From an uncultured Anaerolineales bacterium (GTDB lineage: Bacteria > Chloroflexota > Anaerolineae > B4-G1 > SLSP01), in the NCBI GenBank assembly GCA_964501335.1, contig CAZCTC010000010.1, positions 1 through 64,000 on the forward strand: a DNA stretch of 64,000 nucleotides. The letters run 5' to 3'. Numbering within the stretch: the first letter of the stretch is position 1; each line of letters begins with the position of its first letter. Positions 37,353 through 60,675 of the stretch are shown here, piece after piece. The translations under genes and the position numbers were made by a program. The notes under the pieces were generated by a model. The model saw nothing but the letters and a program-made list of their open reading frames with translations, did no database searches and was not told where the DNA came from.

Positions 37353-39782
37353 ATGAGATTTCGAAGATTTTGGATTTTTATCACGCTGATTTTATGGGCG
37401 GGGTGTCAGAGTGGTGTAAATTCGGGAAATGCGATCCTGGAGCCCGGGGTTAACCGTTCGGTTTTGGCGACAGGAACTCCTTTGCTTTCTACCATAACCA
37501 CAAGTCCCATTTATGGAGATCAACTGGCCGTTGGATGGAGTGTGGATCGCAGCTGGGGGCTGGATTACGATCTCGAGGCGAAAGGGAATGTCCATGGGGG
37601 GCAATACGCCATTGCCGTGAGTCCGCATATGGATGATGCCGAGCTTTTGTTTTCAACCCGTGTCGATAGCGATATTTATGATCAATTTCATTTATTAGGG
37701 ATTCGGTTTTGGTTAAGTGTGGATGCGCCGCTGGATATGAATTCCCTGTCATTGGTCCTGGTGGAAGATATTCCTTTGCAGGGGACGGCGGCGAGTGCGG
37801 TTTCTACCCGAACCGTAGCGGTTCCTTTGACATCGTTAGGGATTGGCGATTTGCAGCCCTTCCAGTGGACTTTGGTTGAATTTTGGCTTTCAAAATTTTC
37901 CGATGCCGCTTTGCCGCGTTATTTCCGAGGGTTCTACCTTCAAAGCAGCGGGGAGCAATGGGTTTCTTTTCGAGTTGATGATATAGAGCTGATGGTTTTG
38001 CGCGATACGGTGGCTCCCATTTTGCTGGAAGTGAAAAATCCCGAGTTGGATCAGGTGGTGCTTTATTTCAGCAAGGATGTGAATCCTTATCTGGTAGCCA
38101 ATCCGGCTGTTTATCATATTTCTGTACGGGGTAACGGCAAGGATGAATCCATGGGCGTTGCGACCATTGATTATTCTCCTTTGCGGCGGGAGGCTCTATT
38201 GCATCTGGCAGAGCCATTGCATGCCGGTGAGACGTATCAGGTCGATATGGAGGGCCTTGCGGATCTTGCCTCCCCGCCGAATCTGTTGGTTTCCGAGCCG
38301 ATGACTTTTACGGCCGGGACCTTGATGGTTTTGATCGAGGCCGGGCAGCCTACCCATTCGATCAGCCCTTACGTTTATGGAGTGTCGGGATTGGATCCGG
38401 AATACATTGGAGATTTGCGCCCTGGTTTGATCAGTTGGGGGGGGAATCCCAGCAGCCGTTATAACTGGAAACTGGGCAATGCCTGGAGTGCCGCCCGCGA
38501 TTGGCAATATAAAAATGGAACGTATGACTATCAAGGTGCTTCCGCATCCGATGATTTTGTTCGGCGTAATCGTGAATGGGGAATTGGGACCCGGTTGGCT
38601 GTACCGACTTTAGGATGGGTAGCCCGGGATACCAGCTCTTGTTCTTTCCCGCAGGCCGACGGTAGTTGCGGCAATGCCGGCAATGCTACCTGTGATCATC
38701 CGGGCCCGATAGCTGATCCTTCTCAGAGCAGTGTGGCGGCCCCTCCTGAATTTGTGGCGGAATGGATTACGCATCTGGTCACAGATGTGCAGGGAGATTT
38801 AACTTTTGTGGCGATGGATAATGAGCCGGAACTTTGGGGGGTGACGCATTATGATGTGCATCCTACCTGTACGACCTATGATGAAATCCTTGAGCGTTTT
38901 GTTTCCTATGGCGAGGCGGTCAAAGCCGTTTCTCCCCAAAGCAAAATCGTCGGTCCTGTGACCTGCTGTTGGGCGTTTTACTGGAGCACCCTTGGGGGTA
39001 CGGTTGATAAGATAGCTCATGGAGGGGAAGATTTTCTGCCCTGGTTTTTAAAAGAGATGGCTGAATATGAAACTCGAACCGGAACCCGGCTTTTGGATTA
39101 TCTGGATATCCATTATTACCCGGAAGGGTTTTATTCGGATGATGTTCAGCCGGTTGTGGCGGAAGGTCGCTTGCGTTCCACACGTTCTTTATGGGATAAG
39201 AGTTTTAACGATGAATCCTGGATCAATCAACCCATTTATTTGATTCCCAGGATGAAGGAGATGATTGCCAAATATTATCCGGGAACCGGTTTTGGAATCA
39301 GCGAATGGAATTGGGGCGCGGATAAAACGATGAATGGGGCCTTGGCCATCGGCGATGTGTTGGGGATTTTGGGACGTGAAAATGTAGATTACGCGGCTTA
39401 CTGGCGTTATCCCGAGCCGGGAAGTGCCGGTTACAACGCTTTTAAGTTGTATACCAATTACGATGGGCAGGGAGGGCGCTTTGGCAATATTTCCGTACCG
39501 GCGTTTTCCAGCAATTCGAATTTGATCAGCGTTTATTCGACTTTGGATGAGAAACAGGAAAACCTTTATGTGATGTTGGTGCATAAGGGATTGGAGCGGC
39601 CCATGACTATTTTGGTTCAGGTGAAGGGCGTTTTGCCTGGAAGTAAAGGCCGTTGGTATCGGTTGGATCAGATGCAATCTCAGCAAATTACTTCCGGGGA
39701 GCTGGCGACAGGATCGCAGTTTGATCTGGAACTGTCGCCTTACTCGATTACTTTACTGGTGCTACCGTTGGAGGCTCAATAA
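37353..39782 (+). CDS. Lipoprotein glycoside hydrolase, GH44-like (clan GH-A)
   Basis: Signal plus ILWAGC lipobox. Catalytic-domain motifs SPYVYG..ISWGGNPSSRYNWKLGN and MDNEPELW (NEP acid/base) resemble GH44 endoglucanases. An N-terminal CBM-like domain is shared with the upstream gene. Confidence 0.5.
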   Translation: MRFRRFWIFITLILWAGCQSGVNSGNAILEPGVNRSVLATGTPLLSTITTSPIYGDQLAVGWSVDRSWGLDYDLEAKGNVHGGQYAIAVSPHMDDAELLFSTRVDSDIYDQFHLLGIRFWLSVDAPLDMNSLSLVLVEDIPLQGTAASAVSTRTVAVPLTSLGIGDLQPFQWTLVEFWLSKFSDAALPRYFRGFYLQSSGEQWVSFRVDDIELMVLRDTVAPILLEVKNPELDQVVLYFSKDVNPYLVANPAVYHISVRGNGKDESMGVATIDYSPLRREALLHLAEPLHAGETYQVDMEGLADLASPPNLLVSEPMTFTAGTLMVLIEAGQPTHSISPYVYGVSGLDPEYIGDLRPGLISWGGNPSSRYNWKLGNAWSAARDWQYKNGTYDYQGASASDDFVRRNREWGIGTRLAVPTLGWVARDTSSCSFPQADGSCGNAGNATCDHPGPIADPSQSSVAAPPEFVAEWITHLVTDVQGDLTFVAMDNEPELWGVTHYDVHPTCTTYDEILERFVSYGEAVKAVSPQSKIVGPVTCCWAFYWSTLGGTVDKIAHGGEDFLPWFLKEMAEYETRTGTRLLDYLDIHYYPEGFYSDDVQPVVAEGRLRSTRSLWDKSFNDESWINQPIYLIPRMKEMIAKYYPGTGFGISEWNWGADKTMNGALAIGDVLGILGRENVDYAAYWRYPEPGSAGYNAFKLYTNYDGQGGRFGNISVPAFSSNSNLISVYSTLDEKQENLYVMLVHKGLERPMTILVQVKGVLPGSKGRWYRLDQMQSQQITSGELATGSQFDLELSPYSITLLVLPLEAQ

Positions 39783-43266: not shown

Positions 43267-44010
43267 ATGGCTGAATTTAAAAATATTGAAGATTTGGTCC
43301 GTGTGGAACAGGTGGTGGAATTGTTTGCCCGGGGCGATTTTCCCAATAAAGGTTTTCTTCGATCCCTGGAGTTTGGGGGGCGATGGTTGATCTGGATCGG
43401 AGGAACCGAATTGCACCGCTTTTCCAAAAGGGCGCTGGATATCGTCGGAGCTTTGATCGCTTTGATTCTGGCGGCGCCCTTGATGGTGGTGACCGTGTTG
43501 CTGATCAAATTGGATTCTCCAGGGCCGATTCTCTTTTTTCAAACCCGGGTGGGACGGTGGGGACGGAAGTTTACCTGTTATAAATTCCGTTCCATGTATA
43601 TCGATGCTGAGAAAAGACTTCTCGATTTACATCAACTCAATGAAGCGGATGGTCCGATTTTTAAAATACGTCGGGACCCCCGGGTTACCCGGGTGGGGCG
43701 GGTGATCCGAAAACTGAGCATTGACGAATTGCCGCAGATTTTCAATGTTCTCAAAGGGGATATGTCTCTGGTCGGCCCCCGACCTCCGTTGCCCCGGGAG
43801 GTGGTTCGTTATACCCTGGAACATCGACGGCGCCTGGATGCGATTCCCGGTATTACCGGATTGCAGCAGATTTCCGGACGGAGCGATTTGCCTTTTGAAC
43901 GTTGGGTGGCTTTGGATGTGGAATACATCGAAAATCAGTCGTTTTGGTATGATCTGGAGATCCTTTTGAAAACAATTCCGACGGTATTGGGGGGCAAGGG
44001 CGCTTATTAA
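43267..44010 (+). CDS. Polyprenyl-phosphate sugar phosphotransferase (Bac_transf / WbaP-EpsL family)
   Basis: KRALDIVGALIAL..PGPILFFQTRVG..FKFRSM..DELPQ..MSLVGPRP..PGITGLQQ. Confidence 0.85.
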   Translation: MAEFKNIEDLVRVEQVVELFARGDFPNKGFLRSLEFGGRWLIWIGGTELHRFSKRALDIVGALIALILAAPLMVVTVLLIKLDSPGPILFFQTRVGRWGRKFTCYKFRSMYIDAEKRLLDLHQLNEADGPIFKIRRDPRVTRVGRVIRKLSIDELPQIFNVLKGDMSLVGPRPPLPREVVRYTLEHRRRLDAIPGITGLQQISGRSDLPFERWVALDVEYIENQSFWYDLEILLKTIPTVLGGKGAY

Positions 44011-44032: not shown

Positions 44033-45502
44033 ATGCGAAAATTGTTGGTAATTGCCGGGGTGCCGGTGGATGATTTGACGATGGAAGAGGTATTGGATCG
44101 CATTGAATCTTTTGTGGATTCGGGTTCTTTTCATCAGATAGCTACGGTCAATGCGGATTTTGTGGTACAGGCCTGGGATGATCCGGAGTTGCGCTACATT
44201 CTGCAGGTGGCGGATATATTGACGCCGGATGGAATGCCGTTGGTGTGGGGGGCGCGGTTGTTGGGCGTCCCGCTTTATGGACGTGTGACGGGAGCGGATC
44301 TGGTTCCTGCTTTATGTGAACGCGGGGCTCAAAGGGGGTGGCGATTTTATTTTTTAGGAGCCGGCCCGGGGGTGGCGGTGCGGGCGGCTCAGGTACTGAC
44401 AGCTCGTTATCCGGGATTGCAAATTGTAGGGATTGCTTCTCCGCCTAATTTGCCCGTTGTAGAGATGGATTTTTCGGTAGTGGAGCAGATCCGTGAGGTT
44501 CGGCCTGACCTTTTGTTGGTCGCTTTTGGCAATCCCAAACAGGAAAAATGGATCCATATGCATGGATTGGAGTTGGGGGTCAAAGTAGCGATTGGGGTCG
44601 GCGGGACATTTGATTTGATTGCGGGAAAATTACAGCGTGCTCCTCAGTGGATGCAAAAAGGCGGGTTGGAATGGTGTTATCGTTTGTTTCAAGAACCGCG
44701 GCGTTTATGGCGGCGGTATGTGCGGGACTTAATTCGTTTTTCGCGCTTCTTTGGCGAGCAATGGTGGGCTCAACAGCAGGGGCGCATTCCTTTAGGCGTT
44801 ATACCTCAAATTGAAGAGGCCGAATTGAACGATCCGGTTACCTTAAAAGGTCCGCTTGTAATTTCATTTAATGGTCCCTTGACGGTTGCCACGCGGGAGA
44901 CTTTAGTCAGTTGTGTGGAAGATGCTTTGTTGCGCAGTGCCAATCTGGTGTTGGATGCGAGCCGGTTACCTTTTGTCGACAGTGCCGGGTTGGGGACGCT
45001 GGTCGATTTGTCGCGCCGGGCCCGGGCGGCGGGAGGTGACTTGAAGCTGGCGGGGGCTTTACCGCAAGTGGTCCGGACTTTGGAGTTGACCCAACTGGAT
45101 CGGTTTTTGACATTGGTGCCTTCTCTTGAGGATGGATTGGCAACCCATCGAGATCCTTTACCCCTTTTATCCTTAACGCGTCAGGTAGGATGTTGGACGG
45201 TTCTGCCGCTTCCGGCGCGTTTGGACCTGCACACGATTCCTCAGGTGCGCTCTGAAGCTGAATCTGCGCTGGCTGCGGTTCCTACTCTGGTTTTAGATTT
45301 CGGTTCGACTCGTTTTCTGGACAGTGCCGGCATTGCGATTTTGCTTTCCTGGCATCGCCAGGCCCGACAGCAAGGCGGTGAAGTGCGATTGGCGGCTCTT
45401 TCCCGGGAGATCCGGCGCACCTTGGAGCTGGCAGGTGTTGAATCCATATTGTCCTTGTATTCCAGTGTTGAAGAAGCGCTGATGCAAGGGGTCAGCCGAT
45501 AG
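44033..45502 (+). CDS. WecB/TagA/CpsF (GT26) glycosyltransferase fused to two C-terminal STAS domains
   Basis: N-terminal 250 aa align to TagA/WecG (TPDGMPLVWGARLLG..FGNPKQEKWI..VGGTFDLIAG..RAPQWMQKGGLEWCYRL). It is followed by two STAS units, each with a DSAG(L/I) motif (VDSAGLGTLV; LDSAGIAILL). Confidence 0.75.
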   Translation: MRKLLVIAGVPVDDLTMEEVLDRIESFVDSGSFHQIATVNADFVVQAWDDPELRYILQVADILTPDGMPLVWGARLLGVPLYGRVTGADLVPALCERGAQRGWRFYFLGAGPGVAVRAAQVLTARYPGLQIVGIASPPNLPVVEMDFSVVEQIREVRPDLLLVAFGNPKQEKWIHMHGLELGVKVAIGVGGTFDLIAGKLQRAPQWMQKGGLEWCYRLFQEPRRLWRRYVRDLIRFSRFFGEQWWAQQQGRIPLGVIPQIEEAELNDPVTLKGPLVISFNGPLTVATRETLVSCVEDALLRSANLVLDASRLPFVDSAGLGTLVDLSRRARAAGGDLKLAGALPQVVRTLELTQLDRFLTLVPSLEDGLATHRDPLPLLSLTRQVGCWTVLPLPARLDLHTIPQVRSEAESALAAVPTLVLDFGSTRFLDSAGIAILLSWHRQARQQGGEVRLAALSREIRRTLELAGVESILSLYSSVEEALMQGVSR

Positions 45503-45549
45503 CAGGTCTGGTAGCGGCTGGCTGCCTTTTTCATGCAGGAGGTAAGCCC

Positions 45550-47214
45550 ATGAAGGCCATTATTCTGGCAGCCGGAATGGCATTGCGAGGTCCCCTGGGG
45601 CATTTTATTCCGGGTGTTTTGCTGCCATTAGGGAACAAACCTTTGTTGGAACATCTTTTGGAGACGCTGGCCCGCTCGGGATTTCGGGAAGTGGTAGTGA
45701 TTTTGCATGAGCTTCCCTATGAGGTGGAACGTTATTTTGGAGATGGGCAGCGCTGGGGATTGGAAATTGATTATCGTTTAGAGCAGCATCCCGATTCTCT
45801 ATCCCAATTACGTCGTTTTGCGCTTCAGGCTGAAGAACCTTTTTTGGTGTTGCCGGGAAATATTCTGGTTGATTTTGATTTACACCGTCTGATAACTTTT
45901 CATCAAGAATCCTCAGCGTTGATAACAATAGCTTTAGGATCGGGAACTGCTGAGGGGCAACGAATTCGGGTGGGGGCGCGTGGGCGGGTGATTGCGTTAC
46001 CGGAGAAAAATGGTCGGAAAGTTTCCTCTGATTATGTCGATAGCGGTATCTGGGTTTGTTCGCCTGCTATAGGGATAGAACTTTCTTCCATGGGACGGAC
46101 TTTAAAGACTCTGGATCAGGGGCGTGTTTTGAATGACTTGTTTGACAAGGGGGTCGTGATTTGTGGTTATCCCATGATGACGTCGGGGCAGACGATTCGT
46201 TGTGAAAATGATTGGTTAGTGGCGCAGCGGGCTTTATTAAAAGCTGAGGTTGGGCGATTGTCTCCTTCTGGAAAATTGCTCAAACCGGGGGTTTGGATAG
46301 GGCGGCATACGATAATTCATCCTAAAGCGCAATTGGTACCTCCCGTTGTGATCGGTGACTATGCTCGGATTGGGGCAGAGGCCTCTATTGGGCCTGAAAC
46401 GGTGTTGGGAACGCGCGTTTTTGTCGATAAGGGGGCGACGATTGCTCATACCATGGTCGCCGAAGGTACCTATATCGGTCGCTGGCTTAATCTGGAAAAT
46501 TGTTTGGTTTATCGCAATCTTCTGATCAAGGCGCCTACCGGGACGAGCCTTTTTGTTCCGGATTCATTTCTTTTAGATGCTACGGTGGTAGAAACCAGAG
46601 TTGAAATCTTGAGACGCTGGGGCGAACGATTGGGAGCCTTAATCTTGTTGGGGTTGAGTTTGCCGTTGTGGGGGCCGGCTTTAGGTCTGGCCTTTATCGG
46701 GGGATCGGGCCCTTTGATTGTAAGTGAAGTTCAGGCGGTAGCGGATTGGCAATCCCTTCATAAGGAAGGTCGGGTTGCCTGGCGGTTGGTGACGGTGCAT
46801 CGACTGCGTTTTGATCCGGACACCTGGGCTGGGAAATTGCTGCAATGTTTGGGATGGGCGGATTTACCCAAACTTATTGATGCTGTTTGTGGAAAGCTGG
46901 CTCTGGTGGGGGTCAGCCCATTGACTTCCGAACAGGTGGGGTATTTACAGGATGAGTGGCAACAGTTGCATTTTCGGGCTCCCACCGGGTTGACAGGTTT
47001 ATGGTATCTGAATGCGGATCAGGAAGAAAGTTCTCTGGATTTGGATATGCAGTTGATTGCCGACAGTTATTACGTGGCAACGCGGAACTGGATGGAGGAC
47101 TTGCGAATTTTGTTTCGTACGCTTCGGATTTGGGGGCGCCGTTTGCGCCGCTCGATTTCCAAACCCTGGGAGCGTAAGGTTCCGGCCCTGGCGAGGCAAT
47201 TTGAAGAAGATTAA
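45550..47214 (+). CDS. Tri-domain protein: sugar-phosphate nucleotidyltransferase plus left-handed beta-helix plus C-terminal Bac_transf phosphoglycosyl-transferase domain
   Basis: MKAIILAAG..LLPLGNKPLLEH (NTP_transferase). Hexapeptide repeats (IGDYARIGAEASIGPETVLGTRVFV). TM segment LGALILLGLSLPLWGPALGLAFIGG. Then LALVGVSPLT..GLTGLWYL..DLDMQLIADSYYV..DLRILFRT, matching the Bac_transf C-terminus. Confidence 0.7.
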   Translation: MKAIILAAGMALRGPLGHFIPGVLLPLGNKPLLEHLLETLARSGFREVVVILHELPYEVERYFGDGQRWGLEIDYRLEQHPDSLSQLRRFALQAEEPFLVLPGNILVDFDLHRLITFHQESSALITIALGSGTAEGQRIRVGARGRVIALPEKNGRKVSSDYVDSGIWVCSPAIGIELSSMGRTLKTLDQGRVLNDLFDKGVVICGYPMMTSGQTIRCENDWLVAQRALLKAEVGRLSPSGKLLKPGVWIGRHTIIHPKAQLVPPVVIGDYARIGAEASIGPETVLGTRVFVDKGATIAHTMVAEGTYIGRWLNLENCLVYRNLLIKAPTGTSLFVPDSFLLDATVVETRVEILRRWGERLGALILLGLSLPLWGPALGLAFIGGSGPLIVSEVQAVADWQSLHKEGRVAWRLVTVHRLRFDPDTWAGKLLQCLGWADLPKLIDAVCGKLALVGVSPLTSEQVGYLQDEWQQLHFRAPTGLTGLWYLNADQEESSLDLDMQLIADSYYVATRNWMEDLRILFRTLRIWGRRLRRSISKPWERKVPALARQFEED

Positions 47215-47232
47215 TCTTAACAGGAGGTTGCG

Positions 47233-47571
47233 ATGAAAGCGACGGTAGAGCAGATTGGGCGTTTGACGGTGGTCAGTTTGAATGGACGTTTTGACGCGCA
47301 TACGGCGGGGGTGGCTCGGGAAATTTTTGAACACAAGGTTTCTTGTTCTATGCCCGTTTTGATCGATATGAGTCGGGTGGTTTTTGTCGACAGCATGGGG
47401 CTTTCGGTACTGGTCAGCAGTTTGAAACATTCCCGGGAAGCCGGAGGGGAACTGGCCCTGGCGGGATTGCAACCCACAGTCCGTTTGATTTTTGAATTGA
47501 CGCGCCTGGATAAGGCCTTCCGGATCTATCATGATCGGGCTTCTGCGGAAGCCGAAATGGGTATTCTTTGA
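47233..47571 (+). CDS. STAS-domain anti-sigma-factor antagonist (SpoIIAA/RsbV-like)
   Basis: VFVDSMGLSVLV with conserved phosphorylatable Ser. 112 aa. RBS AGGAGG. Confidence 0.85.
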   Translation: MKATVEQIGRLTVVSLNGRFDAHTAGVAREIFEHKVSCSMPVLIDMSRVVFVDSMGLSVLVSSLKHSREAGGELALAGLQPTVRLIFELTRLDKAFRIYHDRASAEAEMGIL

Positions 47572-49109
47572 TGTGGGATTCTTTTTGCCGCGCCAATCGG
47601 GCCTTTTTGCGCCGATTGGCCGGAACCTGGGAAGCGCAGGGCTGGCAGGCCTATTTTCTGGCGGATCGGGATGGGCGATGGCTGTGGCCTCCGGTTCCTG
47701 TTGCCTTATCTCCCGAGGCCATTGTTCACGAGCTCCCGCCGGCAGGATGGGAGATTTTACCGCTTTGTGTGGCGGGGGGAGGATTTATCGGCTGTTCGCC
47801 GGTGACCTCTCATGGGGAGCTGGCGGCTCAGGCTTTGCTTTTGGAACAGCTTTTATCGCGGGAACTCGAACTTGAGGCGATGGCCGGGGAACTGGCCGAG
47901 GCTTACGATCAACTGGTGGCGATGTATCGGGTTTCTGAAGCAACGCGTTCTCAGTTGAGTTTGCATGACATTCTCAGCTCATTTGTGTTGATGGCTTTGA
48001 GATTGAGCGGGGCTGTTCACGGCTTTGCCGTGATCCTTTATGGACAGGAATTCCGTTGTATTATGAGTACGTTGCCTTCCGGTCCTGAGCCGGTGATGCC
48101 GCTGTTTCAGCAGGCCCGCCTTCAACGGCGTTCTATTTTAGGCAATGCTCCACGAGAATTACGGCAATGGGCTACCCGGCTTCCGGCATGGATTGAACGG
48201 GGGTTGATTATCCCTATTGCAGTGGAAGGGGAAATCGTTGCCGGTTTGGGACTCTTCAACAAGGCTACGGATTTCACTTCGGGGGATTTAAAACTTCTCG
48301 ATGCCCTGGCCAATGAGGTGGGGGTGATTGTGGAGCGGGCTCGTTGGCAGGCTCGCTTGTTGGTCCAGGAGCGGGTGCGGCGGGAATTGGAGATTGCGGC
48401 GGAAATCCAGGCTCGAATGTTGCCCCGTATTTTGCCTCAGGTGCCGGGGTTGGAAATTTCAGCCCATTGCCGGCCGGCCAATGAGGTCGGAGGTGATTTT
48501 TACGATTTTGTCCGCCATCCTGGCGGCGCCCTGGGGGTGGTGTTAGGAGATGTGACCGGCAAGGGCGTTCCGGCGGCGCTCTTTGTCACCGTGGCCCATA
48601 TTTTGTTGCATAGCGGCCTGACCTATACTCAAACGCCCTATGAGATGGTGTTGCGATTGAATTCGGATTTGTACGAAGAGCTTAACCAGGCGGGGATGTT
48701 TATTACGCTTTTCCTGGCTTATTATTATGCGGAAAGTCGGCGGTTGGTGATGGTCAATGCCGGACATGCGCCGGTGTTGCTTTATTCGGCGGCGCAGAAA
48801 CGTTGTAAGTTGTGCATTGCCGATGGCCCCCCTTTGGGTGTACTTCCTCAAATTTTAAGTTTTGAACAAACGGTGGTGTTGACGCCGGGGGACATTTTAG
48901 TGGTGTTGAGTGATGGGTTTAATGAAATGATGAATCCTCAAGGCGAGTTGTTTGGGATCGATCGGCTGATTGAGCTGGTAGAATCCAATGCCGATACGAC
49001 GGCGACCGATCTGCGGATGCGGCTCTTTAAAGCGGTTACGTCGTTTGCTCAGGAAACTCCTCAGGGTGATGATCTGACGCTCTGTATTCTCAAAGCGACT
49101 GCTGAATAA
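47571..49109 (+). CDS. GAF-domain PP2C (SpoIIE/RsbU-like) serine phosphatase
   Basis: C-terminal PP2C motifs GGDFYDF..GDVTGKGVPAAL..LSDGFNE..GDDLTL. An N-terminal GAF-like sensor region. ATG overlaps the STAS stop (TGATG). Confidence 0.8.
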   Translation: MWDSFCRANRAFLRRLAGTWEAQGWQAYFLADRDGRWLWPPVPVALSPEAIVHELPPAGWEILPLCVAGGGFIGCSPVTSHGELAAQALLLEQLLSRELELEAMAGELAEAYDQLVAMYRVSEATRSQLSLHDILSSFVLMALRLSGAVHGFAVILYGQEFRCIMSTLPSGPEPVMPLFQQARLQRRSILGNAPRELRQWATRLPAWIERGLIIPIAVEGEIVAGLGLFNKATDFTSGDLKLLDALANEVGVIVERARWQARLLVQERVRRELEIAAEIQARMLPRILPQVPGLEISAHCRPANEVGGDFYDFVRHPGGALGVVLGDVTGKGVPAALFVTVAHILLHSGLTYTQTPYEMVLRLNSDLYEELNQAGMFITLFLAYYYAESRRLVMVNAGHAPVLLYSAAQKRCKLCIADGPPLGVLPQILSFEQTVVLTPGDILVVLSDGFNEMMNPQGELFGIDRLIELVESNADTTATDLRMRLFKAVTSFAQETPQGDDLTLCILKATAE

Positions 49110-49149
49110 TTTTTGTTTATACCTTCTTCGAAAAGGAGATCCAACGGGA

Positions 49150-49626
49150 ATGATCATGAATGGTGATCCGGAATGCGTCTCTTTGCGGTTTCCCAGTCAC
49201 ACCCGGTATTTGGGGTTAGTGAGCGGCTGCGCGGCTGAAATTTGTCGAATGATGGGATCGGCTGGTAACGCTGCTCTGGTTTATGATGTGCAGTTGTCCA
49301 TTAATGAAGCTGTGGTCAATGCCATTCAACATGCCTATGCCGGCCGCAGTGATGGTTGGGTGGCTGTGGATTTTTCCCTTTATGCAGATCGTTTGGAAAT
49401 TTCGATTATCGATTGGGGGCAGGGGTTTGATTGGCAGGAGTTACCCGTTCCCGATCTTTCGCAACCTTTAGAACATGGATACGGTTTATATCTGGTATGC
49501 CGGGTGATGGATGAGGTGATCTATCATGCTGATCCTATTCAGGGTAACTGCCTGCATTTGATCAAACGTCTGCCCGGCCCGCTCAGGAAGGATGGTAGCG
49601 ATGGCAACGATTCTGGTGGTCGATGA
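49150..49626 (+). CDS. Anti-sigma regulatory factor, HATPase_c Ser/Thr kinase (RsbW/SpoIIAB-like)
   Basis: GHKL motifs NAIQHAY..DWGQGF..GYGLYL. Confidence 0.8.
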   Translation: MIMNGDPECVSLRFPSHTRYLGLVSGCAAEICRMMGSAGNAALVYDVQLSINEAVVNAIQHAYAGRSDGWVAVDFSLYADRLEISIIDWGQGFDWQELPVPDLSQPLEHGYGLYLVCRVMDEVIYHADPIQGNCLHLIKRLPGPLRKDGSDGNDSGGR

Positions 49627-49966
49627 TGATGTGGCCAGCCGCCGGCTGGTCACTTACATTTTGGAGCGGCATCAACACATTCCAATTCCTGCCTGTAGTG
49701 CGCAGGAAGCTCTGGAATGGCTGGAGGAGAATTGTCCGGAGCTGGCCGTGATGGATATTGCGATGCCGGTGATGGATGGAATGGCTTTGCTTCATCAGTT
49801 GCGAGCCGATCCGCGGTTTCAGAAGCTGCCGGTGTTGGTGGTGACGGCCAGCAGTTATGAGGAGGCCCGCGTCATTGCCGGTGTGGAAGGCGCGAATGGT
49901 TTTTTGACGAAGCCGATCAGTTCGCAGGACCTTCTGGAAGCGGTTGAGCGGCTTTTATCTCGATAA
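49601..49966 (+). CDS. Stand-alone response-regulator receiver (REC) protein
   Basis: ILVVDDD..AVMDIAMPVMDG..TKP. Start taken at MATIL (GGAAGGA upstream). Overlaps the kinase 3' end. Confidence 0.85.
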   Translation: MATILVVDDDVASRRLVTYILERHQHIPIPACSAQEALEWLEENCPELAVMDIAMPVMDGMALLHQLRADPRFQKLPVLVVTASSYEEARVIAGVEGANGFLTKPISSQDLLEAVERLLSR

Positions 49967-49985: not shown

Positions 49986-50034
49986 TTAAGCCATTGGGGC
50001 GCGCTGTCGCAGACAGCGCGCCCCAATGGCTTAA
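49986..50034. repeat. 49-nt perfect palindrome (ttaagccattggggcgcgctgtc-gca-gacagcgcgccccaatggcttaa)
   Basis: Read directly. A 23-bp stem. Lies at the 3' end of the EPS/partner-switch operon. Confidence 0.65.
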
Positions 50035-50082
50035 TTGTAACTTGGGCGGTGAGCCCAGAAAACAAGGCAAAGAAAAACTCAT

Positions 50083-50113
50083 TTTTCGGCGGCTTTCCGA
50101 AGCCGCCGAAAAA
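50083..50113. repeat. GC-hairpin repeat (tttttcggcggc-tttccgaa-gccgccgaaaaa)
   Basis: Same subfamily as 19815 and the truncated copy at the window start (about 40..60). Confidence 0.65.
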
Positions 50114-50364
50114 TGAAAGACAGCACTCTCTTCCCATCCAGCGTGTCGTTTTCTACCAAACAAAGGCTTTTTGCGGGACGCAAGAAACCGAAGATGTGCA
50201 GGCCGAGGGGCGTAAAAGGTACTTGGGGCGGTTTGCCTCTCTTGCAGCTTGGTGTATACTCTACCTTGTTCGCTTACCTGCTGATCGGTAATTTCCCAAG
50301 CTTTTTCATTTGGTGCTGGTTTGGTTTCCCATTAGTCAGAAAAACAAGACCAGGAAAGTACTTT

Positions 50365-51690
50365 ATGGCAAAACCATCCATCGTTTGGAACGTAGAACAG
50401 ATCCTTGCGTTTGCGCCCGATGCCCAGGTGGGGAAGGCGGGACAGGGTTTGACCCGGCCTGCGAAGTGGACCGACCTGGGGTGTAACGAGGAAGCTGTTT
50501 GGGGTCTTCAAAAGGGCTCCGGCAGTGAACCTTATCAGGTTGTAGTGGACCCCGTAGCTCCCGCTTTCAAATGCAGTTGTCCCAGCCATAAAAAACCCTG
50601 TAAACATGCGATCGGTTTGTTATTGCTGGCCCAGAGCAATTTGAAGGCTTTTACTGAGGCCGATCCGCCGGATTGGGTGAAGAGCTGGCTGGCAGGACGG
50701 GCGGCTGCGGCAGCGAAAAAGGCCCGGACGGATAAGTCGCCTGTGGATGCGGAGGCTCAAGCCAAACGGGCGGCTAAACGGGAAGCCAAGGTGCAACAGG
50801 GGATTGATGCTCTTTATCTCTGGCTGGAAGATCTCATGCGCCAGGGATTGGGGTCTCTTTCGAGTCAGCCGACCTCCTTTTGGGAGACCCAGGCGGCGCG
50901 GTTGGTGGATGCTCAGGCTGCGGGATTGGCGCGCCGGGTGCGTGATTTGGAATCGGTGATTTATTCCGGGGAAGGGTGGCCGGCGCGAATGCTGGAACGC
51001 CTGGGACGCCTCTATTTGTTGCTCGATGCTTTCGGGCGTCTGGAATCTCTGCCTCCCGACTTGCAGGATGAAGTGCGAACTCAGGTGGGCTGGAGCCAGG
51101 ATCAGGATTCGCTGCTGAAGGTCGACGGCGTGCGGGATCTCTGGGCGATTGTAGGACAGCGAGAAACCGAAGAGGATCGGCTGCGGGTGCGGCGGACCTG
51201 GTTGTGGGGAATTCAGAGCCAGCGAGGTGCGCTGGTTTTGGATTTTGCAGCTCCCGGTCAGACTTTGGAAGGCGGCGGGGCTCCCGGCATCCTGGTGGAT
51301 GGGGAATTGGTTTTCTGGAACAGCCCTTATCCCCAGCGAGCGATTTTCAAAAATCGGGGCATTTCTCGCCCTATGGATAGGCTTCCCGGCTATTCGGGGG
51401 TGCAGGCGGCTCTCGGAGTCTACGGGGCTGCCCTTGCTGCGAATCCCTGGATGGATCAGTTCCTTTTCCTTTTAGATGAGGTCCGACCTGTGTTGCAGGG
51501 TTCCACCTGGTGGATCTGTGACCGGGAGAATGCTCGCCTGCCCCTCTCCATCGTTCCTCAAGAGGGCTGGCGGTTGATGGGGATGAGCGGGGGGCGCCCC
51601 TGTGTGTTGGCGGGGGAGTGGAACGGTGAAAAACTGACTCCGCTCGGTGTCTGGGCTGAAGGTGTTTTTACCGTTTTCCGAAATGCCTGA
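50365..51690 (+). CDS. SWIM zinc-finger protein
   Basis: SWIM CxCx(n)CxH signature in FKCSCPSHKKPCKHAIGLL. Start reassigned to ATG 50365 (AGGAAAG upstream) because the ORF's 5' part overlaps a hairpin repeat. Confidence 0.7.
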   Translation: MAKPSIVWNVEQILAFAPDAQVGKAGQGLTRPAKWTDLGCNEEAVWGLQKGSGSEPYQVVVDPVAPAFKCSCPSHKKPCKHAIGLLLLAQSNLKAFTEADPPDWVKSWLAGRAAAAAKKARTDKSPVDAEAQAKRAAKREAKVQQGIDALYLWLEDLMRQGLGSLSSQPTSFWETQAARLVDAQAAGLARRVRDLESVIYSGEGWPARMLERLGRLYLLLDAFGRLESLPPDLQDEVRTQVGWSQDQDSLLKVDGVRDLWAIVGQRETEEDRLRVRRTWLWGIQSQRGALVLDFAAPGQTLEGGGAPGILVDGELVFWNSPYPQRAIFKNRGISRPMDRLPGYSGVQAALGVYGAALAANPWMDQFLFLLDEVRPVLQGSTWWICDRENARLPLSIVPQEGWRLMGMSGGRPCVLAGEWNGEKLTPLGVWAEGVFTVFRNA

Positions 51691-51734
51691 CCTCTTTGCC
51701 TCTTTTTGTCTATGTTAAATCCCGGAGGTGAAAT

Positions 51735-53282
51735 TTGAGCCTGTGGTCTGACTATGTGGCTGCTGCCTTGGTGGGGACAGCCCGGGCCGGATTGCCTGCT
51801 TTGTCCAGTCCGACGACCCCTCTGGAAAAATTGGTGGCTCAGTTGCAAGGGCTGCCGCCTGAACGTCAATTGTTGGCTGCCAGTGCTACCGTGGCACTCT
51901 GGCAGCAGGCCGGGGTGGAACCGTTGGTGGCCGGCGATGGGCTGCCGGCTGAAGCCGAAGCCGAGAAGGAATCGTTTTGTTCCAGTCAGGCGACGGCGTT
52001 GTTGACCCGCATTTTGCAGGGGGAGCTCCCGGCGTTGCTTCCGGAATGGCTGCGGCGCTTGCGGGAATCCCACGGGGTGCTGCCGTTGCGGGTGCTGCCG
52101 GAAATGTTGGATATGGCGGTGCAGCAGGCTTATCTGCAGGATGCCATTGTGCCGGTTTTAGGAAGTCGGGGGCGCTGGTTGGCGGCCCACAATGTGACCT
52201 GGACCGAGCTGTTGTTGCCTGAAACGCCGGAAGCTCAGCTGGAAGCCTGGCAAACGGGCAGCCGGGGGGTGCGGCGAGCGCTGTTGCGTCAGGCACGTCA
52301 AGCCGATCCTCAACGGGCCTGGACTCTGTTACATGCCAGCTGGAGCCAGGAGGCCGCGGCGGAACGGGCGTCGTTCCTGGAGTTGTTCAAAGTCGGTCTG
52401 AACTCTGCGGATGAGCCTTTTTTGGAGACGACCCTGGATGATCGCAGCAAGGTGGTGCGGGGGGTGGCGGCGGAGTTGCTTTCTCAGTTGCCTGGGTCCG
52501 GATTGATGCAGCGGATGAAGGCTCGCCTGGAGCCCTTGATTGCGCTGGGAAAGGGGCGCCGTCTGATGAGCGCCGAGAAGTTGAAGGTGACCCTGCCGAC
52601 TGAATGTGATGCGGCGATGGAACGGGATGGAATTGATCCTAAACCACCTTCGGGCATCGGGGAGCATACCTGGCTGTTGTTGCAGATCATCGCGGCGGTC
52701 GATCCGGCCTATTGGTGCGAACATTGGGAAAAAACGCCCGATGAACTGATCCATCTGGCGAAGGACAGCGATGAAGAACGGGCGCTCTTGGAAGGTTGGG
52801 CCCGGGCTGCCATCCGCTGCCGCCGGGAAGATTGGGCCAGGGCGCTCCTTTTCCGCTGGATCGAGAAGCCCTGGACGGCCGTGGCCCTGCGGCAGGCGCC
52901 TTATACCTTTATCGAACAAGAAGCTTTGATCCGGTTGGTGCCGCAGGCCGATCTGGAAGATCGTTTGATTATGTTGTCGGGGACAGCGGTGGGAATGAAA
53001 GATGAAGGCCGTCTGTTGTTGACGATTTTCCAGGGCCATAAACGGCCCTGGGGGGCGGATCTGACGACGGCTTTTATTCATATGATGCGCTCTTTCCTCA
53101 AAAAGAAAGTAGGGGGCTATTGGTATTGGTGGAATGCGCTGGCGGAGCTGGCGCTCTACGCCGACCCCCAACTGGTCAGGGAATCCAGTCAGGGATGGCC
53201 TGAGAATATGTCGCGACAGTCTTCGCTGGATCAGTGGAATTCCATTTTGGAGTTCCGTCGAACCATGAATGAAGCTTTCTAA
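51735..53282 (+). CDS. Large alpha-helical protein (DUF5691-like) of the SWIM/MoxR/vWA cassette
   Basis: TTG start with GGAGGTG RBS. Leu/Ala-rich helical repeats. Sits between the SWIM and MoxR genes. The DUF name is from memory. Confidence 0.5.
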   Translation: MSLWSDYVAAALVGTARAGLPALSSPTTPLEKLVAQLQGLPPERQLLAASATVALWQQAGVEPLVAGDGLPAEAEAEKESFCSSQATALLTRILQGELPALLPEWLRRLRESHGVLPLRVLPEMLDMAVQQAYLQDAIVPVLGSRGRWLAAHNVTWTELLLPETPEAQLEAWQTGSRGVRRALLRQARQADPQRAWTLLHASWSQEAAAERASFLELFKVGLNSADEPFLETTLDDRSKVVRGVAAELLSQLPGSGLMQRMKARLEPLIALGKGRRLMSAEKLKVTLPTECDAAMERDGIDPKPPSGIGEHTWLLLQIIAAVDPAYWCEHWEKTPDELIHLAKDSDEERALLEGWARAAIRCRREDWARALLFRWIEKPWTAVALRQAPYTFIEQEALIRLVPQADLEDRLIMLSGTAVGMKDEGRLLLTIFQGHKRPWGADLTTAFIHMMRSFLKKKVGGYWYWWNALAELALYADPQLVRESSQGWPENMSRQSSLDQWNSILEFRRTMNEAF

Positions 53283-53310
53283 TTAACCATAAAGAACTTA
53301 AGGAGAACTT

Positions 53311-54396
53311 ATGGAGACGAATCTGCTACGCCAACATGCCGAACAGCAATTTGCCGAGGAGCTGCATGAGCTGGCCAGGGTGGACACCCGTGCTCGCCCT
53401 CCCAAGTGGAAGCTTTCGCCCTGGGCGGTAACGACCTATCTGTTGGGGGGCAAGCTGTCCAGCGGCTTTGTCGTTTCGCCCAAGTACATCGGCAACCGGG
53501 CTTTGATGGAAATTGCCGTGGCGACGTTGACGACGGATCGCGCTTTGTTGCTTTATGGGGTGCCCGGGACCGCCAAGAGCTGGGTCTCGGAACATCTGGC
53601 CGCTGCCGTCAGCGGGGATTCTACAATGATCGTCCAGGGGACGGCGGGGACCAGTGAAGAGGCCATTCGCTACGGCTGGAACTATGCCAAACTGCTCACT
53701 GACGGTCCTTCGATCGATGCCCTGGTTACCAGCCCGGTGATGCGGGCGATGACCGAGGGCAAGATTGCCCGCGTGGAAGAGTTGACCCGTATTCCTTCGG
53801 ATGTGCAGGATGCGCTGATTACGATCCTTTCTGAAAAATCGCTGCCGATTCCCGAACTCAATTCGGAGGCGCAGGCGGTGAAGGGGTTCAATATCATTGC
53901 GACGGCCAATAACCGCGATCGCGGCGTCAATGAACTTTCCAGCGCGTTGAAGCGCCGTTTCAATACGGTGGTGCTGCCGGTTCCCAGTACGTTGGAAGAG
54001 GAAACCAAGATCGTTTTGCAGCGCGTGGCTTCGTTGGGCAAGGCGCTGGAGCTGCCGGCGGAGGCGCCTTCAGCGGATGAGGTGAAGCGGATTGTGACGA
54101 TCTTCCGCGAGTTGCGCGACGGCACGACGATCGACGGCAAGACCCGTCTGAAGTCGCCGAGCGGCACGCTGAGCACGGCGGAAGCGATTTCGGTGGTCAA
54201 CAGCGGGCTGGCGTTGGCCGGCTATTTCGGCGACGGCCAGTTGCGGGCTTCGGATATGGCCTCCAGCATTACCGGCGCTGTGGTGAAAGATCCGGTGCAG
54301 GATCGGATTGTCTGGCTGGAATATCTGGAGACGGTGATCAAAGAACGCGATGGTTGGAAGGATCTCTATCGGGCGTGCCGTGAGATGGTGGATTGA
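53311..54396 (+). CDS. MoxR-like AAA+ ATPase
   Basis: Walker A LLYGVPGTAKS, Walker B/sensor region IARVEELTR..ATANN. Size and topology fit MoxR/AAA_5. RBS AAGGAG. Confidence 0.85.
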   Translation: METNLLRQHAEQQFAEELHELARVDTRARPPKWKLSPWAVTTYLLGGKLSSGFVVSPKYIGNRALMEIAVATLTTDRALLLYGVPGTAKSWVSEHLAAAVSGDSTMIVQGTAGTSEEAIRYGWNYAKLLTDGPSIDALVTSPVMRAMTEGKIARVEELTRIPSDVQDALITILSEKSLPIPELNSEAQAVKGFNIIATANNRDRGVNELSSALKRRFNTVVLPVPSTLEEETKIVLQRVASLGKALELPAEAPSADEVKRIVTIFRELRDGTTIDGKTRLKSPSGTLSTAEAISVVNSGLALAGYFGDGQLRASDMASSITGAVVKDPVQDRIVWLEYLETVIKERDGWKDLYRACREMVD

Positions 54397-54479
54397 GGAT
54401 GCGGTGGGCGTGAGCCGCTGCAAAGATGAACGGTACCTATCTGGCTTGCCGATGACACCCATAACAAGGAGGCTGTACG

Positions 54480-56861: not shown

Positions 56862-56874
56862 GAGGCCGGGAACG

Positions 56875-58059
56875 ATGGCAAAAGGATCGACCTCAATGGA
56901 AGTGGTGGATGAGCGCACCCGGCGCTGGCGTCTGATTCTGGGCGGCGGCGAGGCCGATGGGACCGGAATGTGCGCCGGAATAGGGGGCGGTTTGAGTGCG
57001 GAGGATATCGGGATGGATAAGGCGCTGACGGCGCTTTACGACAGCGATCGGAGCGCCGGTCTGGGCAGCTCGGCTCCCAATGTGGCGCGCTGGCTGGGCG
57101 ATATCCGCACCTATTTTCCGCAGAGTGTGGTGCAGGTTTTGCAGAAGGATGCTCTGGAGCGGTTGGATCTGAAGCAGATGTTGATGGAGCCGGAGATGTT
57201 GGAACAGATCCAGCCGGATGTCCATCTGGCGGCGACGCTGGTTTCACTCAAGAGCGCGTTGCCGGGTAAGACGCGGGATACGGCGCGGGTGGTGGTACGC
57301 AAGGTGGTGGAAGATCTGGAGCGCCGTCTGGGCGAGCCGCTGCGCCAGGCGGTGCGGGGCAGCCTGGACCGTACGGCGCGGACTTTTCGCCCGCGTTTCA
57401 ATGAAATCGACTGGAACCGGACGATTCGGATCAACCTGAGCCGCTATCAGAAGGATTATCACACGATTATCCCGGAACGGCGGGTGGGCTATCCCCGGCG
57501 GCGCGGGTCGGCGCTGCGGCATATCGTGCTGTGCGTGGATCAGAGCGGTTCGATGGCCTCTTCGGTGGTCTATGCCGGGATCTTCGGGGCGGTGCTGGCT
57601 TCGTTGAAGGCGGTGAGCACCCGGGTGGTGGTTTTCGATACCGAGGTGGTGGATCTGACGGAGATGATTGCCGATCCGGTGGAGATGTTGTTCGGGACGC
57701 AGCTGGGCGGCGGTACCGATATCAATCGGGCGCTGGCTTATTGTCAGACGGTCATCGACAAGCCGCAGGATACCATTCTGGTGTTGTTGAGCGATATGTA
57801 CGAAGGGGGCAACGAGACGGAGATGATCCAGCGGGCCCGGGCCCTGGTGGATTCCGGGGTGCAGATGATCGGGTTGCTGGCGCTGGACGATCACGGGGCG
57901 CCGTCGTACAGCCATCGGGTGGCGGCGGATCTGGCGGCGCTGGGCGTGCCGTCGTTTGCCTGCACGCCGGATCAGTTCCCGCAGATGATGGCGGCGGCCA
58001 TTCAGCGGCAGGATATGTCGATGTGGGCGGCGACGGAAGGGATTGCGATCGCCCACTGA
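56875..58059 (+). CDS. vWA-domain protein (MoxR partner)
   Basis: MIDAS DQSGSM..GGGTD. C-terminal vWA domain, N-terminal helical region. Confidence 0.8.
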   Translation: MAKGSTSMEVVDERTRRWRLILGGGEADGTGMCAGIGGGLSAEDIGMDKALTALYDSDRSAGLGSSAPNVARWLGDIRTYFPQSVVQVLQKDALERLDLKQMLMEPEMLEQIQPDVHLAATLVSLKSALPGKTRDTARVVVRKVVEDLERRLGEPLRQAVRGSLDRTARTFRPRFNEIDWNRTIRINLSRYQKDYHTIIPERRVGYPRRRGSALRHIVLCVDQSGSMASSVVYAGIFGAVLASLKAVSTRVVVFDTEVVDLTEMIADPVEMLFGTQLGGGTDINRALAYCQTVIDKPQDTILVLLSDMYEGGNETEMIQRARALVDSGVQMIGLLALDDHGAPSYSHRVAADLAALGVPSFACTPDQFPQMMAAAIQRQDMSMWAATEGIAIAH

Positions 58060-58070
58060 GTTTTTAGTTT

Positions 58071-58128
58071 AGAGCATTTTGTAAGGGCGCCGGCCATAGG
58101 CCGGCGCCCTTATAAAATGCTCTTTTTA
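58071..58128 (+). terminator. Intrinsic terminator after the vWA gene
   Basis: agagcattttgtaagggcgccggcc-atag-gccggcgcccttataaaatgctct followed by TTTTT. Confidence 0.7.
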
Positions 58129-58141
58129 CTCGGGTGATTAA

Positions 58142-58251
58142 CATTTTAGCATCCCGCAAAAGGCTTTCGTTCGGCTTGAAGCGACGCGCGGGAGGGGGAG
58201 AGAGTTTTTTTGTTTATGTTTTCGCGGGCTTCAGAAAGCCCGCGAAAACAT
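58142..58251. repeat. Composite palindromic element, tandem copy 1 (hairpin core 58216..58251)
   Basis: cattttagcatcccgcaaaaggctttcgttcggcttgaagcgacgcgcgggagggggagagagtttttttgtttatgttttcgcgggc-ttcagaaa-gcccgcgaaaacat. Confidence 0.7.
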
Positions 58252-58281
58252 GGGCTTTTTTTCTGTGCCCCTGATGCCGGG

Positions 58282-58390
58282 CATTTTAGCATTCCGCAAA
58301 AGGCTTTCGTTCGGCTTGAAGCGACGCGCGGGATGGGGAGAGAGTTTTTTTGTTTATGTTTTTGCGGGCTTCAGAAAGCCCGCGAAAACA
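58282..58390. repeat. Composite palindromic element, tandem copy 2 (hairpin core 58356..58390)
   Basis: Near-identical to 58142..58251 (about 130-bp tandem duplication). Confidence 0.7.
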
Positions 58391-58580
58391 GGGGTTTTTC
58401 CTTTACTTGTTTTCCGGGCTCACCGCACAGGTGGGAATTTATTCAAAATGTTTTTTATTCCGGCGATTTTTGACTTCGGCCCAAGGTGGGCTATACTGGG
58501 GGCATATTTATAACTTTGCGACTTATGGCGCTTGTGTGCGTATTTCTTATCTTGTAAGGAATGTAAGGAGGAGACGGATC

Positions 58581-59342: not shown

Positions 59343-59346
59343 GTCG

Positions 59347-60591: not shown

Positions 60592-60642
60592 GTCAGGAAA
60601 AACTTACCAGCCTATTGCGGGCAACCCTTAAATCTATACTTA

Positions 60643-60675
60643 TATTTTCGCCCGCCTCAACAGGCGGGCGAAAAT
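60643..60675. repeat. GC-hairpin repeat (attttcgcccgcc-tcaaca-ggcgggcgaaaat)
   Basis: Same subfamily as 17239. Confidence 0.65.

Follow-up and report, generated by a model that had tools for sequence, protein, structure and literature searches.

Gene content and organization of the locus

The DNA analyzed here (the window) is a 64-kb stretch of contig CAZCTC010000010.1 from an uncultured Anaerolineales bacterium. Between positions 44033 and 49966, the open reading frame (ORF) list places six co-directional, tightly packed genes on the + strand, to which all feature coordinates below refer unless another locus is named. The first gene (44033-45502) encodes a 489-aa fusion of a GT26 glycosyltransferase with two STAS domains, STAS1 and STAS2 (Pfam Glyco_tran_WecG and STAS). 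It is followed by genes for a 554-aa membrane-anchored probable pseudoenzyme (45550-47214; Pfam NTP_transferase, Hexapep, and a partial Bac_transf), a 112-aa solo STAS protein (47233-47571; Pfam STAS, 1e-20), a serine phosphatase of the PP2C/SpoIIE family with an N-terminal sensor region that weakly resembles a GAF domain (47571-49109; Pfam SpoIIE, 2e-42), a 158-aa GHKL serine kinase similar to RsbW and SpoIIAB (49150-49626; Pfam HATPase_c_2, 2e-21), and a CheY-like single-domain response-regulator receiver, REC (49592-49966; Pfam Response_reg, 2e-25). The reading that we favor, and regard as fairly probable, is that these genes encode a sigma-independent phospho-switch of the partner-switching type within an exopolysaccharide (EPS) operon, the output of which would be the GT26 enzyme itself, acting through its own STAS serines.

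Upstream genes between 28626 and 44010 were assigned by Pfam to Wzx, Wzy, hexapeptide acyltransferases, GT2 and GT4 glycosyltransferases, a GH44 glycoside hydrolase, and a Bac_transf priming enzyme and, judged by this gene content, the host locus is a Wzx/Wzy-type EPS locus. The priming enzyme, a phosphoglycosyl transferase of ~247 aa (43267-44010; Pfam Bac_transf, 2e-67; NCBIfam EPS_sugtrans, 301.7 bits against a cut-off of 295.6), has intact catalytic D-E and PRP motifs and carries no STAS domain. It represents the step preceding the GT26 enzyme and is the conserved upstream neighbor of the fusion gene.

Within the six-gene block, the ATG of the phosphatase gene overlaps the stop codon of the solo STAS gene by 1 nt (TGATG), the receiver gene starts inside the 3′ end of the kinase gene, and the remaining intergenic gaps measure 18-47 nt. 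An AGGAGG ribosome-binding site lies 7 nt 5′ of the solo STAS gene. Two strong palindromic hairpins follow the REC stop codon, one at 49987-50033 with a 20-bp stem and one at 50078-50117 with an 18-bp stem flanked by A and T tracts, and the switch module therefore represents the 3′ end of the EPS operon. Because the 28-50 kb stretch is lower in guanine-plus-cytosine (GC) content (0.49-0.53) than its flanks (0.56-0.63), the regulatory genes share the base composition of the EPS locus. By these overlaps, short gaps, common low GC content, and terminal hairpins, the module genes form one operon with the EPS genes. An initial annotation, made from the sequence alone, had described STAS, PP2C phosphatase, GHKL kinase, and receiver genes at the 3′ end of a polysaccharide operon, and the ORF coordinates, Pfam domains, and hairpins agree with that description. 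Its gene inventory was correct for the ORFs that it named; it did not mention the 554-aa gene, a part of the conserved module located midway through the interval. Across the EPS and switch region, GC skew is positive and unusually strong (0.2-0.28) and AT skew is negative, and every main gene from 24.5 to 63 kb is on the + strand.

The GT26-STAS fusion

Residues 1-248 of the fusion protein (44033-44776) were assigned to a GT26 (TagA/WecG/CpsF) catalytic domain with a C-terminal appendage helix, based upon Pfam, a match to TagA, and Foldseek. Glyco_tran_WecG (PF03808) covers residues 60-229 with an E value of 6e-64 (215 bits; cut-off 27.4), and the TIGR00696 model scores 153 bits against a cut-off of 69. 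Thermoanaerobacter TagA (7mpk) aligns with this domain at 1e-44, and Foldseek matched it to TagA/TarA with a TMt of ~0.9 (GT-E fold). The TagA residues that have been shown or proposed to be catalytic are Thr37, Asn39, Asp65, Arg83, Gln167, Glu168, Arg214, and Arg221 (PMC6493773); their counterparts in the fusion, T38, N40, D66, R84, Q170, E171, R217, and R224, are all invariant in the family alignment. TagA is active as a monomer, the C-terminal appendage of which must fold on the membrane before the active site is complete; TagA dimers are inactive, and GT26 enzymes such as TagA catalyze the first committed reaction to follow priming (PMC6493773). The appendage is also present in the fusion, where the linker and the STAS pair come directly after it. 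Since the GT26 domain keeps all of the TagA catalytic residues as well as the appendage, it looks catalytically competent.

The AlphaFold model of the 489-aa protein (predicted local distance difference test [pLDDT] 85.7, predicted template modelling score [pTM] 0.75, from a 51-sequence alignment) consists of the GT26 domain ending in a long helix (residues 222-248), a disordered linker between appendage and STAS1 (residues 253-271, 44789-44845, pLDDT <50), STAS1 (residues 275-373, 44855-45151), and STAS2 (residues 383-484, 45179-45484).

A protein search across 5.8 billion proteins with the fusion as query returned 1890 matches below 1e-10. All of the best 120 matches carry PF03808 and two STAS domains, and nearly all of them, apart from a few atypical ones, align over ~99% of the length at 46-64% identity. 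Named sources among these 120 are Anaerolineales, Ardenticatenaceae, Roseiflexaceae, and other Chloroflexota metagenome-assembled genomes (MAGs). The possibility that the fusion is a frameshift or an assembly artefact joining separate genes, which the initial annotation had itself raised, was ruled out by the continuous ORF, by the identical 489-aa protein on independent contigs, by the shared architecture of the 120 best matches, and by the AlphaFold model of one GT26 and two STAS domains. The proposed TagA/WecG-type glycosyltransferase with two C-terminal STAS domains, each with a DSAG motif (residues 316-319 and 430-433), was thus borne out by Pfam, and the database search that had been suggested for such fusions found them throughout its best matches.

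When representative proteins were searched with the tandem STAS part of the fusion, most matches were the same fusion or truncated fragments of it, and the others were generic STAS proteins of the solo or tandem kind. This representative search revealed no further enzyme class joined to these tandem STAS domains, with the sole exception of a 373-aa protein (P0214) in which an RsbW-like HATPase_c_2 kinase is fused directly to tandem STAS domains. By its domain order, P0214 would be a covalent version of the kinase/tandem-STAS pairing proposed here. A separate metagenome scan was made with the family alignment; its patterns fell in the GT26 domain, so that most of the 80 loci obtained were plain GT26 genes and only L027 and L030-L035 were informative (loci outside the window are designated by L numbers).

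Pfam STAS covers two stretches of the fusion, residues 271-367 and 393-469 (E value 3e-39). The anti-sigma-antagonist superfamily model TIGR00377 scores 106.6 bits on the fused STAS pair and 68 bits on the solo STAS protein, against a cut-off of 53.45. STAS1 was matched by Foldseek to SpoIIAA and RsbV (TMt 0.84-0.86), and STAS2 matched SpoIIAA (1th8_B) at 8e-9. STAS1, STAS2, and the solo STAS protein align with one another without gaps at 31-40% identity, with the F-[VL]-D-S-x-G motif in register. The predicted acceptor serines are Ser317 of STAS1 (F314-V-D316-S317-A-G, codon 44981-44983), Ser431 of STAS2 (F-L-D430-S431-A-G, codon 45323-45325), and Ser54 of the solo STAS protein (F-V-D-S54-M-G, codon 47392-47394).

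Conservation was counted over 113 full-length homologues in the alignment. F314, D316, S317, and G321 of STAS1 are invariant (113/113); in STAS2, S431 is present in 111 of the 113 and G433 in all of them, so the conserved serines that the initial annotation had assumed are found in a proper alignment. STAS1 also keeps its D-S pair in all eight Armatimonadota fusions, and the solo STAS orthologues keep theirs in eight of nine. In a Chloroflexia MAG (L005, 13224-15089), the acceptor Ser of the solo STAS protein is replaced by Leu (FIDL) and the phosphatase gene is broken into two ORFs; these lesions represent either sequencing errors or a decaying copy of the module.

The predicted switch genes and their conserved neighborhood

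The six-gene block of GT26-STAS fusion, 554-aa protein, solo STAS, PP2C, kinase, and REC is complete in the window and in L002, L005, L006, L021 (Ardenticatenaceae), L024, and L026. It is present in L022/L023 with the kinase gene moved upstream onto the opposite strand, in L004 without a PP2C ORF, and in L027, where the GT26 enzyme has a single STAS domain that keeps FLDSS and lacks STAS2. Physical linkage of the kinase/phosphatase module with the fusion was thereby observed in ten loci, and in L006 the block is intact despite rearrangement of the surrounding EPS genes. Across Chloroflexota, the module genes are thus inherited together with the fusion. STAS1 keeps its D-S pair in every locus that has the module in cis.

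Fusions were also found outside this setting. In Armatimonadota (Chthonomonadales, Armatimonas; L007-L017), the fusion belongs to a related EPS locus that also contains GT2, GH44, Wzy, and GT4 genes. Divergent GT26 proteins with a single C-terminal STAS domain were recovered from bog and soil metagenomes (L030, 6717-7979; L031, 850-2205; L032, 8785-10317; L033, 2644-3987; L035, 8935-10167), with no kinase or phosphatase gene nearby. The acceptor position is Gly in four of these five proteins, and L030 (YASPQG) may keep a Ser, so that the serine is lost in four or five of the five divergent, module-free fusions. This pattern fits a phospho-switch that was added to a STAS domain with a basal, phosphorylation-independent role.

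If the fused STAS domains were structural, ligand-binding, or membrane-targeting elements, as in SLC26 transporters and MlaB, and unconnected to the neighboring switch genes, then fusions without the module, such as those in Armatimonadota and other lineages, would be expected, and weak matches of the domains to MlaB and SulP STAS models point the same way. We regard this explanation as highly unlikely, given that the module stands beside the fusion in ten loci, even after rearrangement (L006, L022), that the anti-sigma-antagonist model scores far above the MlaB and SulP models, and that the phospho-acceptor motif is invariant.

The phosphatase matches PF07228 (SpoIIE) with 145 bits (2e-42) and has the metal-binding motifs GGDFYD308, DVTGKG328, SDG448, and DDLT501. 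The GAF-PP2C architecture given in the initial annotation held for the PP2C domain; the GAF assignment is weak, as GAF_2 barely passes at the N-terminus (28.8 bits against a cut-off of 28.6). The best NCBIfam match of this protein is SiaA, with a score far below its cut-off. The kinase matches PF13581 (HATPase_c_2) with 77 bits (cut-off 27.4), and its best solved-structure match is RsbW (6m36_A, 3.7e-14), followed by SpoIIAB. Its N-box (E53, N57, H61), G1 (D88-W-G-Q-G), and G2 (G110-Y-G-L) motifs are conserved across orthologues. A stressosome (RsbR/S/T), as suggested by the layout of an N-terminal domain joined to STAS, a solo STAS, and a kinase, was considered and set aside because the kinase matches RsbW/SpoIIAB and no RsbT chain was returned. 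Membership in the Myxococcus EPS system (EpsA/EpsZ/EpsW), to which the best NCBIfam names pointed, was rejected, all scores being far below the cut-offs.

The receiver has D11, D12, D55 (49754-49756), and K107. None of the window's ~44 main ORFs was found to encode a histidine kinase. In L024, a PAS-HisKA-HATPase histidine kinase (15887-17560, − strand) lies <2 kb from the orphan receiver, and in L026 a V4R protein and a second receiver protein (14693-16285) are found within the same distance (<2 kb); these proteins may provide the receiver's missing input.

No sigma-70-family domain was detected by Pfam in the ~44 main ORFs of the window (the short ORFs left over in gaps were checked by eye only), and the annotated neighborhoods of L021, L022, L024, and L026 yielded no sigma factor either. 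The earlier statement that no sigma factor is present therefore holds within the 64-kb window. A canonical partner switch could still act on a sigma factor encoded elsewhere, with the STAS domains of the GT26 protein being either extra antagonists that report enzyme status to an anti-sigma kinase or unrelated to it. The kinase is indeed most like RsbW and SpoIIAB, the STAS domains pass the anti-sigma-antagonist superfamily model, and the view of this genome is limited to 64 kb. We nevertheless judge such a switch in trans to be improbable: no sigma factor was found in the window or in the four neighborhoods, the module travels with the GT26 fusion and not with any regulator, and the kinase scores under the RsbW equivalog cut-off.

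The 554-aa protein combines a nucleotidyltransferase fold like that of GMPP with a left-handed beta-helix, a long hydrophobic helix (residues 340-384), and a phosphoglycosyl-transferase-like domain. Its N-terminal two thirds are kin to enzymes of the mannose-1-phosphate guanylyltransferase type, and its AlphaFold model was matched by Foldseek to tlr0611, GMPPA/GMPPB, VTC1, and MurU. The C-terminal phosphoglycosyl-transferase-like domain was confidently modelled; Pfam Bac_transf covers only profile positions 77-175 in it. Compared with the canonical nucleotidyltransferase signature (the G-x-G-T-R-L-x-P-L-T loop and the P-K-P lysine), the loop of the window copy is degenerate (AAGMALR-GPLG...PGV). 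It is near-canonical in the closest clade (P0272-P0279, GVGSRLSPLT...PKP), and more distant members have ATDExxKL.

The phosphoglycosyl-transferase-like domain of the window copy has A-D in place of the catalytic D-E and VSP in place of PRP, and the region around KFRSM is altered. All of these motifs are intact in the neighboring priming enzyme. Six family members derived from the compared loci have H-R, D-H, D-R, Q-H, or E-R at the dyad and V-[SKR]-P for PRP. Database homologues are also non-canonical (V-G-P included), and the dyad and PRP are replaced, and the KFRSM region altered, in every Chloroflexota member; the sole exception in the family is the Nitrospirota protein P0303, which keeps both D-E and PRP. 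In each of the ten loci long enough to cover the site (L002, L004, L005, L006, L021, L022, L024, L025, L026, and L027), the gene occupies the same position. Given these substitutions, the protein is probably a membrane-anchored pseudoenzyme that serves as a scaffold or as a nucleotide-sugar sensor. Catalytically inactive GMPPA is an allosteric sensor for GMPPB, and this pair offers a possible analogy.

Other features of the window lie outside the switch module. The GH44 gene of the EPS locus (37353-39782) is conserved in a locus type that also contains GT2, GT26-STAS, Wzy, and two GT4 genes (L003, L005, L006, L011, L014, L015, L017, L021, L024, and L026). This GH44-bearing type occurs in both Chloroflexota and Armatimonadota, which suggests a shared, uncharacterized polysaccharide with a dedicated processing hydrolase. 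Directly upstream of this EPS locus lies a gene for an 866-aa protein homologous to eukaryotic Major Vault Protein (MVP), at 24487-27087 on the + strand (Vault repeats, 8e-67; MVP_shoulder, 8e-53); a cluster-mate of this protein is named "major vault protein" in one database source, and bacterial MVP homologues have been reported (bioRxiv 10.1101/872010). Right after the EPS terminators, genes at 50366-58059 (+ strand) encode a SWIM zinc finger protein, DUF5691, a MoxR-type AAA_5 ATPase, DUF5682, and a CoxE-like VWA protein, and the series continues to 63117 with another VWA protein, a PP2C_2 phosphatase, a WD40 propeller, and a leucine-rich repeat protein. By its domains, the 50366-63117 cluster looks like a MoxR-VWA multi-component system. 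At 800-7561 (+ strand), a 2253-aa protein with MAM, DUF11 (×5), PKD (×5), and Ig-like domains is encoded, presumably a surface or adhesion protein.

Predicted mechanism and comparison with known systems

In the phospho-switch that we favor, the kinase would phosphorylate Ser317 of STAS1, probably Ser431 of STAS2, and Ser54 of the solo STAS protein. The PP2C phosphatase would remove these phosphates in response to a cytoplasmic signal sensed through its N-terminal region, to a relay from an unlinked histidine kinase through the receiver, or to both. By analogy with All4160, a polysaccharide enzyme of Anabaena, the phosphorylated enzyme would be off and the dephosphorylated enzyme on. The step under control would be the second in building the repeat unit on its lipid carrier; being the first committed step after priming, it is a logical control point. 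Physically, the switch would likely govern how the enzyme engages the membrane or which oligomeric state it adopts, possibly by having the dimeric kinase bind to it. Such control appears the most economical option because the STAS pair directly follows the membrane-activated appendage on a flexible linker and because TagA dimers are inactive. The solo STAS protein would most likely compete for the kinase, both as a substrate and as a binding partner, with the enzyme in the place that a sigma factor occupies elsewhere, and the 554-aa pseudoenzyme would provide the complex with a scaffold at the membrane or with a sensor of nucleotide sugars.

Several observations weigh against this reading. On the NCBIfam RsbW equivalog model, the kinase reaches 69 bits where the cut-off is 145, and it is not an RsbW orthologue. 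D430, which precedes the acceptor serine of STAS2, is present in only 10 of the 113 homologues, so that STAS2 is perhaps not a substrate; the description of both fused STAS domains as carrying a DSAG motif fits the window copy, but the Asp before the Ser of STAS2 is absent in ~90% of homologues. In Armatimonadota, the STAS2 Ser is replaced by Cys or Ile in six of eight fusions, and kinase, PP2C, STAS, and REC genes were not found within 10 kb of the fusion genes (E <1e-2; unexplained neighboring ORFs were outside the Pfam scan). The Chloroflexota locus L025 likewise has the fusion and the 554-aa gene with no switch genes nearby and, because of these loci, cis linkage cannot be considered obligatory. 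The Ser-less divergent fusions indicate in addition that a STAS domain fused to GT26 also has a phosphorylation-independent role.

Some of the same observations would be accommodated if the solo STAS protein were the sole substrate of kinase and phosphatase, as SypA is in Vibrio fischeri. Its unphosphorylated form would then dock on the tandem STAS domains or on the pseudoenzyme and activate synthesis, and the fused STAS domains would be docking modules. The absence of the serine from the divergent fusions (L031-L035), the Cys or Ile in STAS2 of Armatimonadota, and the conservation of a solo STAS gene in every module-bearing locus speak for this arrangement, as does the finding that unphosphorylated SypA acts on an unknown target (PMC8256260). 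On the other hand, conservation of D316-S317 in 113/113 and of S431 in 111/113 members of the module-carrying clade would be difficult to account for if the acceptor were not under selection, the fused STAS domain of All4160 is itself a substrate, and the solo STAS protein of L005 has lost its serine to Leu. Switching through the solo STAS protein only is thus rather unlikely in our estimation.

A more elaborate scheme, which we hold as a tentative possibility of low probability, is a true partner switch. The dimeric kinase would hold the unphosphorylated tandem STAS domains of two GT26 proteins in an inactive, off-membrane dimer of the kind known for TagA, and the dephosphorylated solo STAS protein would displace the kinase and free the active enzyme. 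The 554-aa pseudoenzyme would act as a GMPPA-like sensor and scaffold joining the priming enzyme, the GT26 protein, and the switch. Were this so, precursor supply and an environmental signal would both be coupled to the committed step of EPS synthesis.

Control of EPS production in bacteria is mostly understood in terms of transcription, cyclic di-GMP, and tyrosine-kinase co-polymerases. That a repeat-unit glycosyltransferase can be directly phosphorylated on serine by way of a fused STAS domain was first demonstrated in 2026, in work the authors of which viewed the mechanism as specific to cyanobacteria (PMC13555669). The window would show the same logic on a GT26 enzyme, with another domain order, in Chloroflexota, and related fusions occur in Armatimonadota and other lineages; the strategy of placing STAS domains on an enzyme therefore appears broader and modular. 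All of the predicted components (enzyme, kinase, phosphatase, competitor STAS, receiver, and likely scaffold) are encoded in one compact, widely conserved operon, which makes the system convenient for in vitro reconstitution. Since Chloroflexota dominate activated-sludge flocs and microbial mats, a switch for matrix production would also be of applied relevance. Full-text literature searches returned nothing relevant on STAS together with WecG (GT26-STAS fusions) or on partner switching in Chloroflexi.

The closest precedent is the All4160/HenR/Alr3423 system of Anabaena sp. PCC 7120. All4160 combines an N-terminal STAS domain with a Bac_transf priming enzyme, and its Ser74 is phosphorylated in vitro by Alr3423 (Harada, Matsuoka and Ehira, Mol Microbiol 2026, PMC13555669). 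The kinase Alr3423 switches All4160 off, the phosphatase HenR (REC-SpoIIE) is required for activation, and the henR defect is suppressed in an S74A variant or when alr3423 is deleted (PMC13555669). The Synechocystis homologue of All4160 is XssP; proteins with STAS and Bac_transf are rare outside cyanobacteria, and the strategy has been called lineage-specific (PMC13555669). Both systems have a STAS domain fused to a polysaccharide enzyme, an RsbW-type kinase and a SpoIIE/PP2C phosphatase acting on a conserved Ser, an enzyme as output, and a receiver as input, these roles being predicted for the window. The initial annotation had proposed a biosynthetic enzyme and not a sigma factor as the target, and comparative evidence supports this proposal in the form of the conserved gene linkage, the absence of a sigma factor from the loci covered, and the All4160 precedent (PMC13555669).

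The two systems also differ in several respects. The window enzyme is a GT26 protein of the second step, while the Anabaena enzyme is a Bac_transf protein of the priming step, and the PF03808 fusion is not a homologue of All4160 or XssP. The window protein has two C-terminal STAS domains and All4160 one N-terminal domain; a solo STAS protein and a conserved pseudoenzyme gene are added in the window; the receiver is a separate protein here and is fused to the phosphatase in Anabaena; and the parts share one operon with the enzyme here, whereas the Anabaena genes are scattered. The hosts belong to Chloroflexota and cyanobacteria, respectively. The window therefore seems to hold a distinct variant that would work like a switch of the Anabaena kind.

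The initial annotation had instead drawn a parallel with V. fischeri SypA/SypE. That parallel stands with regard to the setting, as in both cases STAS, kinase, and phosphatase functions lie inside a polysaccharide locus and involve a receiver domain, and the control is sigma-independent in V. fischeri and would be so in the window. It is looser than the parallel to All4160, given that SypE is one protein comprising kinase, REC, and PP2C, the counterparts of which are three separate genes in the window, and that SypA is a solo STAS protein with an unknown target (PMC8256260, PMC4517449) and no syp enzyme carries a STAS domain.

The Bacillus RsbV/RsbW/RsbU and SpoIIAA/SpoIIAB/SpoIIE switches resemble the module in having a STAS protein with a phosphorylatable Ser, a GHKL kinase, and a PP2C phosphatase, and they provide the structure matches (6m36, 1th8). 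They differ from it in that no sigma partner was found in the window, the STAS domains are fused to an enzyme, and the kinase is under the RsbW equivalog threshold. With the wall-teichoic-acid GT26 enzymes TagA/TarA, the fusion shares the fold, the catalytic residues, the membrane-activated appendage, and the second (first committed) lipid-carrier step (PMC6493773). Distinct from those enzymes, it has ~240 extra residues (the tandem STAS domains) after the appendage and belongs to a Wzx/Wzy EPS locus of a Chloroflexota bacterium.

Similar to the window module, Pseudomonas aeruginosa SiaABCD and Nostoc HmpU/V/W use a PP2C phosphatase and a kinase on a small switch protein, with an enzyme or a cell-surface process as output; their switch protein is separate from the target. 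The target of the Sia system is a diguanylate cyclase. That of the Hmp system is unknown (PMC8256260), and the module described here could help to identify the targets of SypA, HmpV, and other STAS switches that work without a sigma factor.

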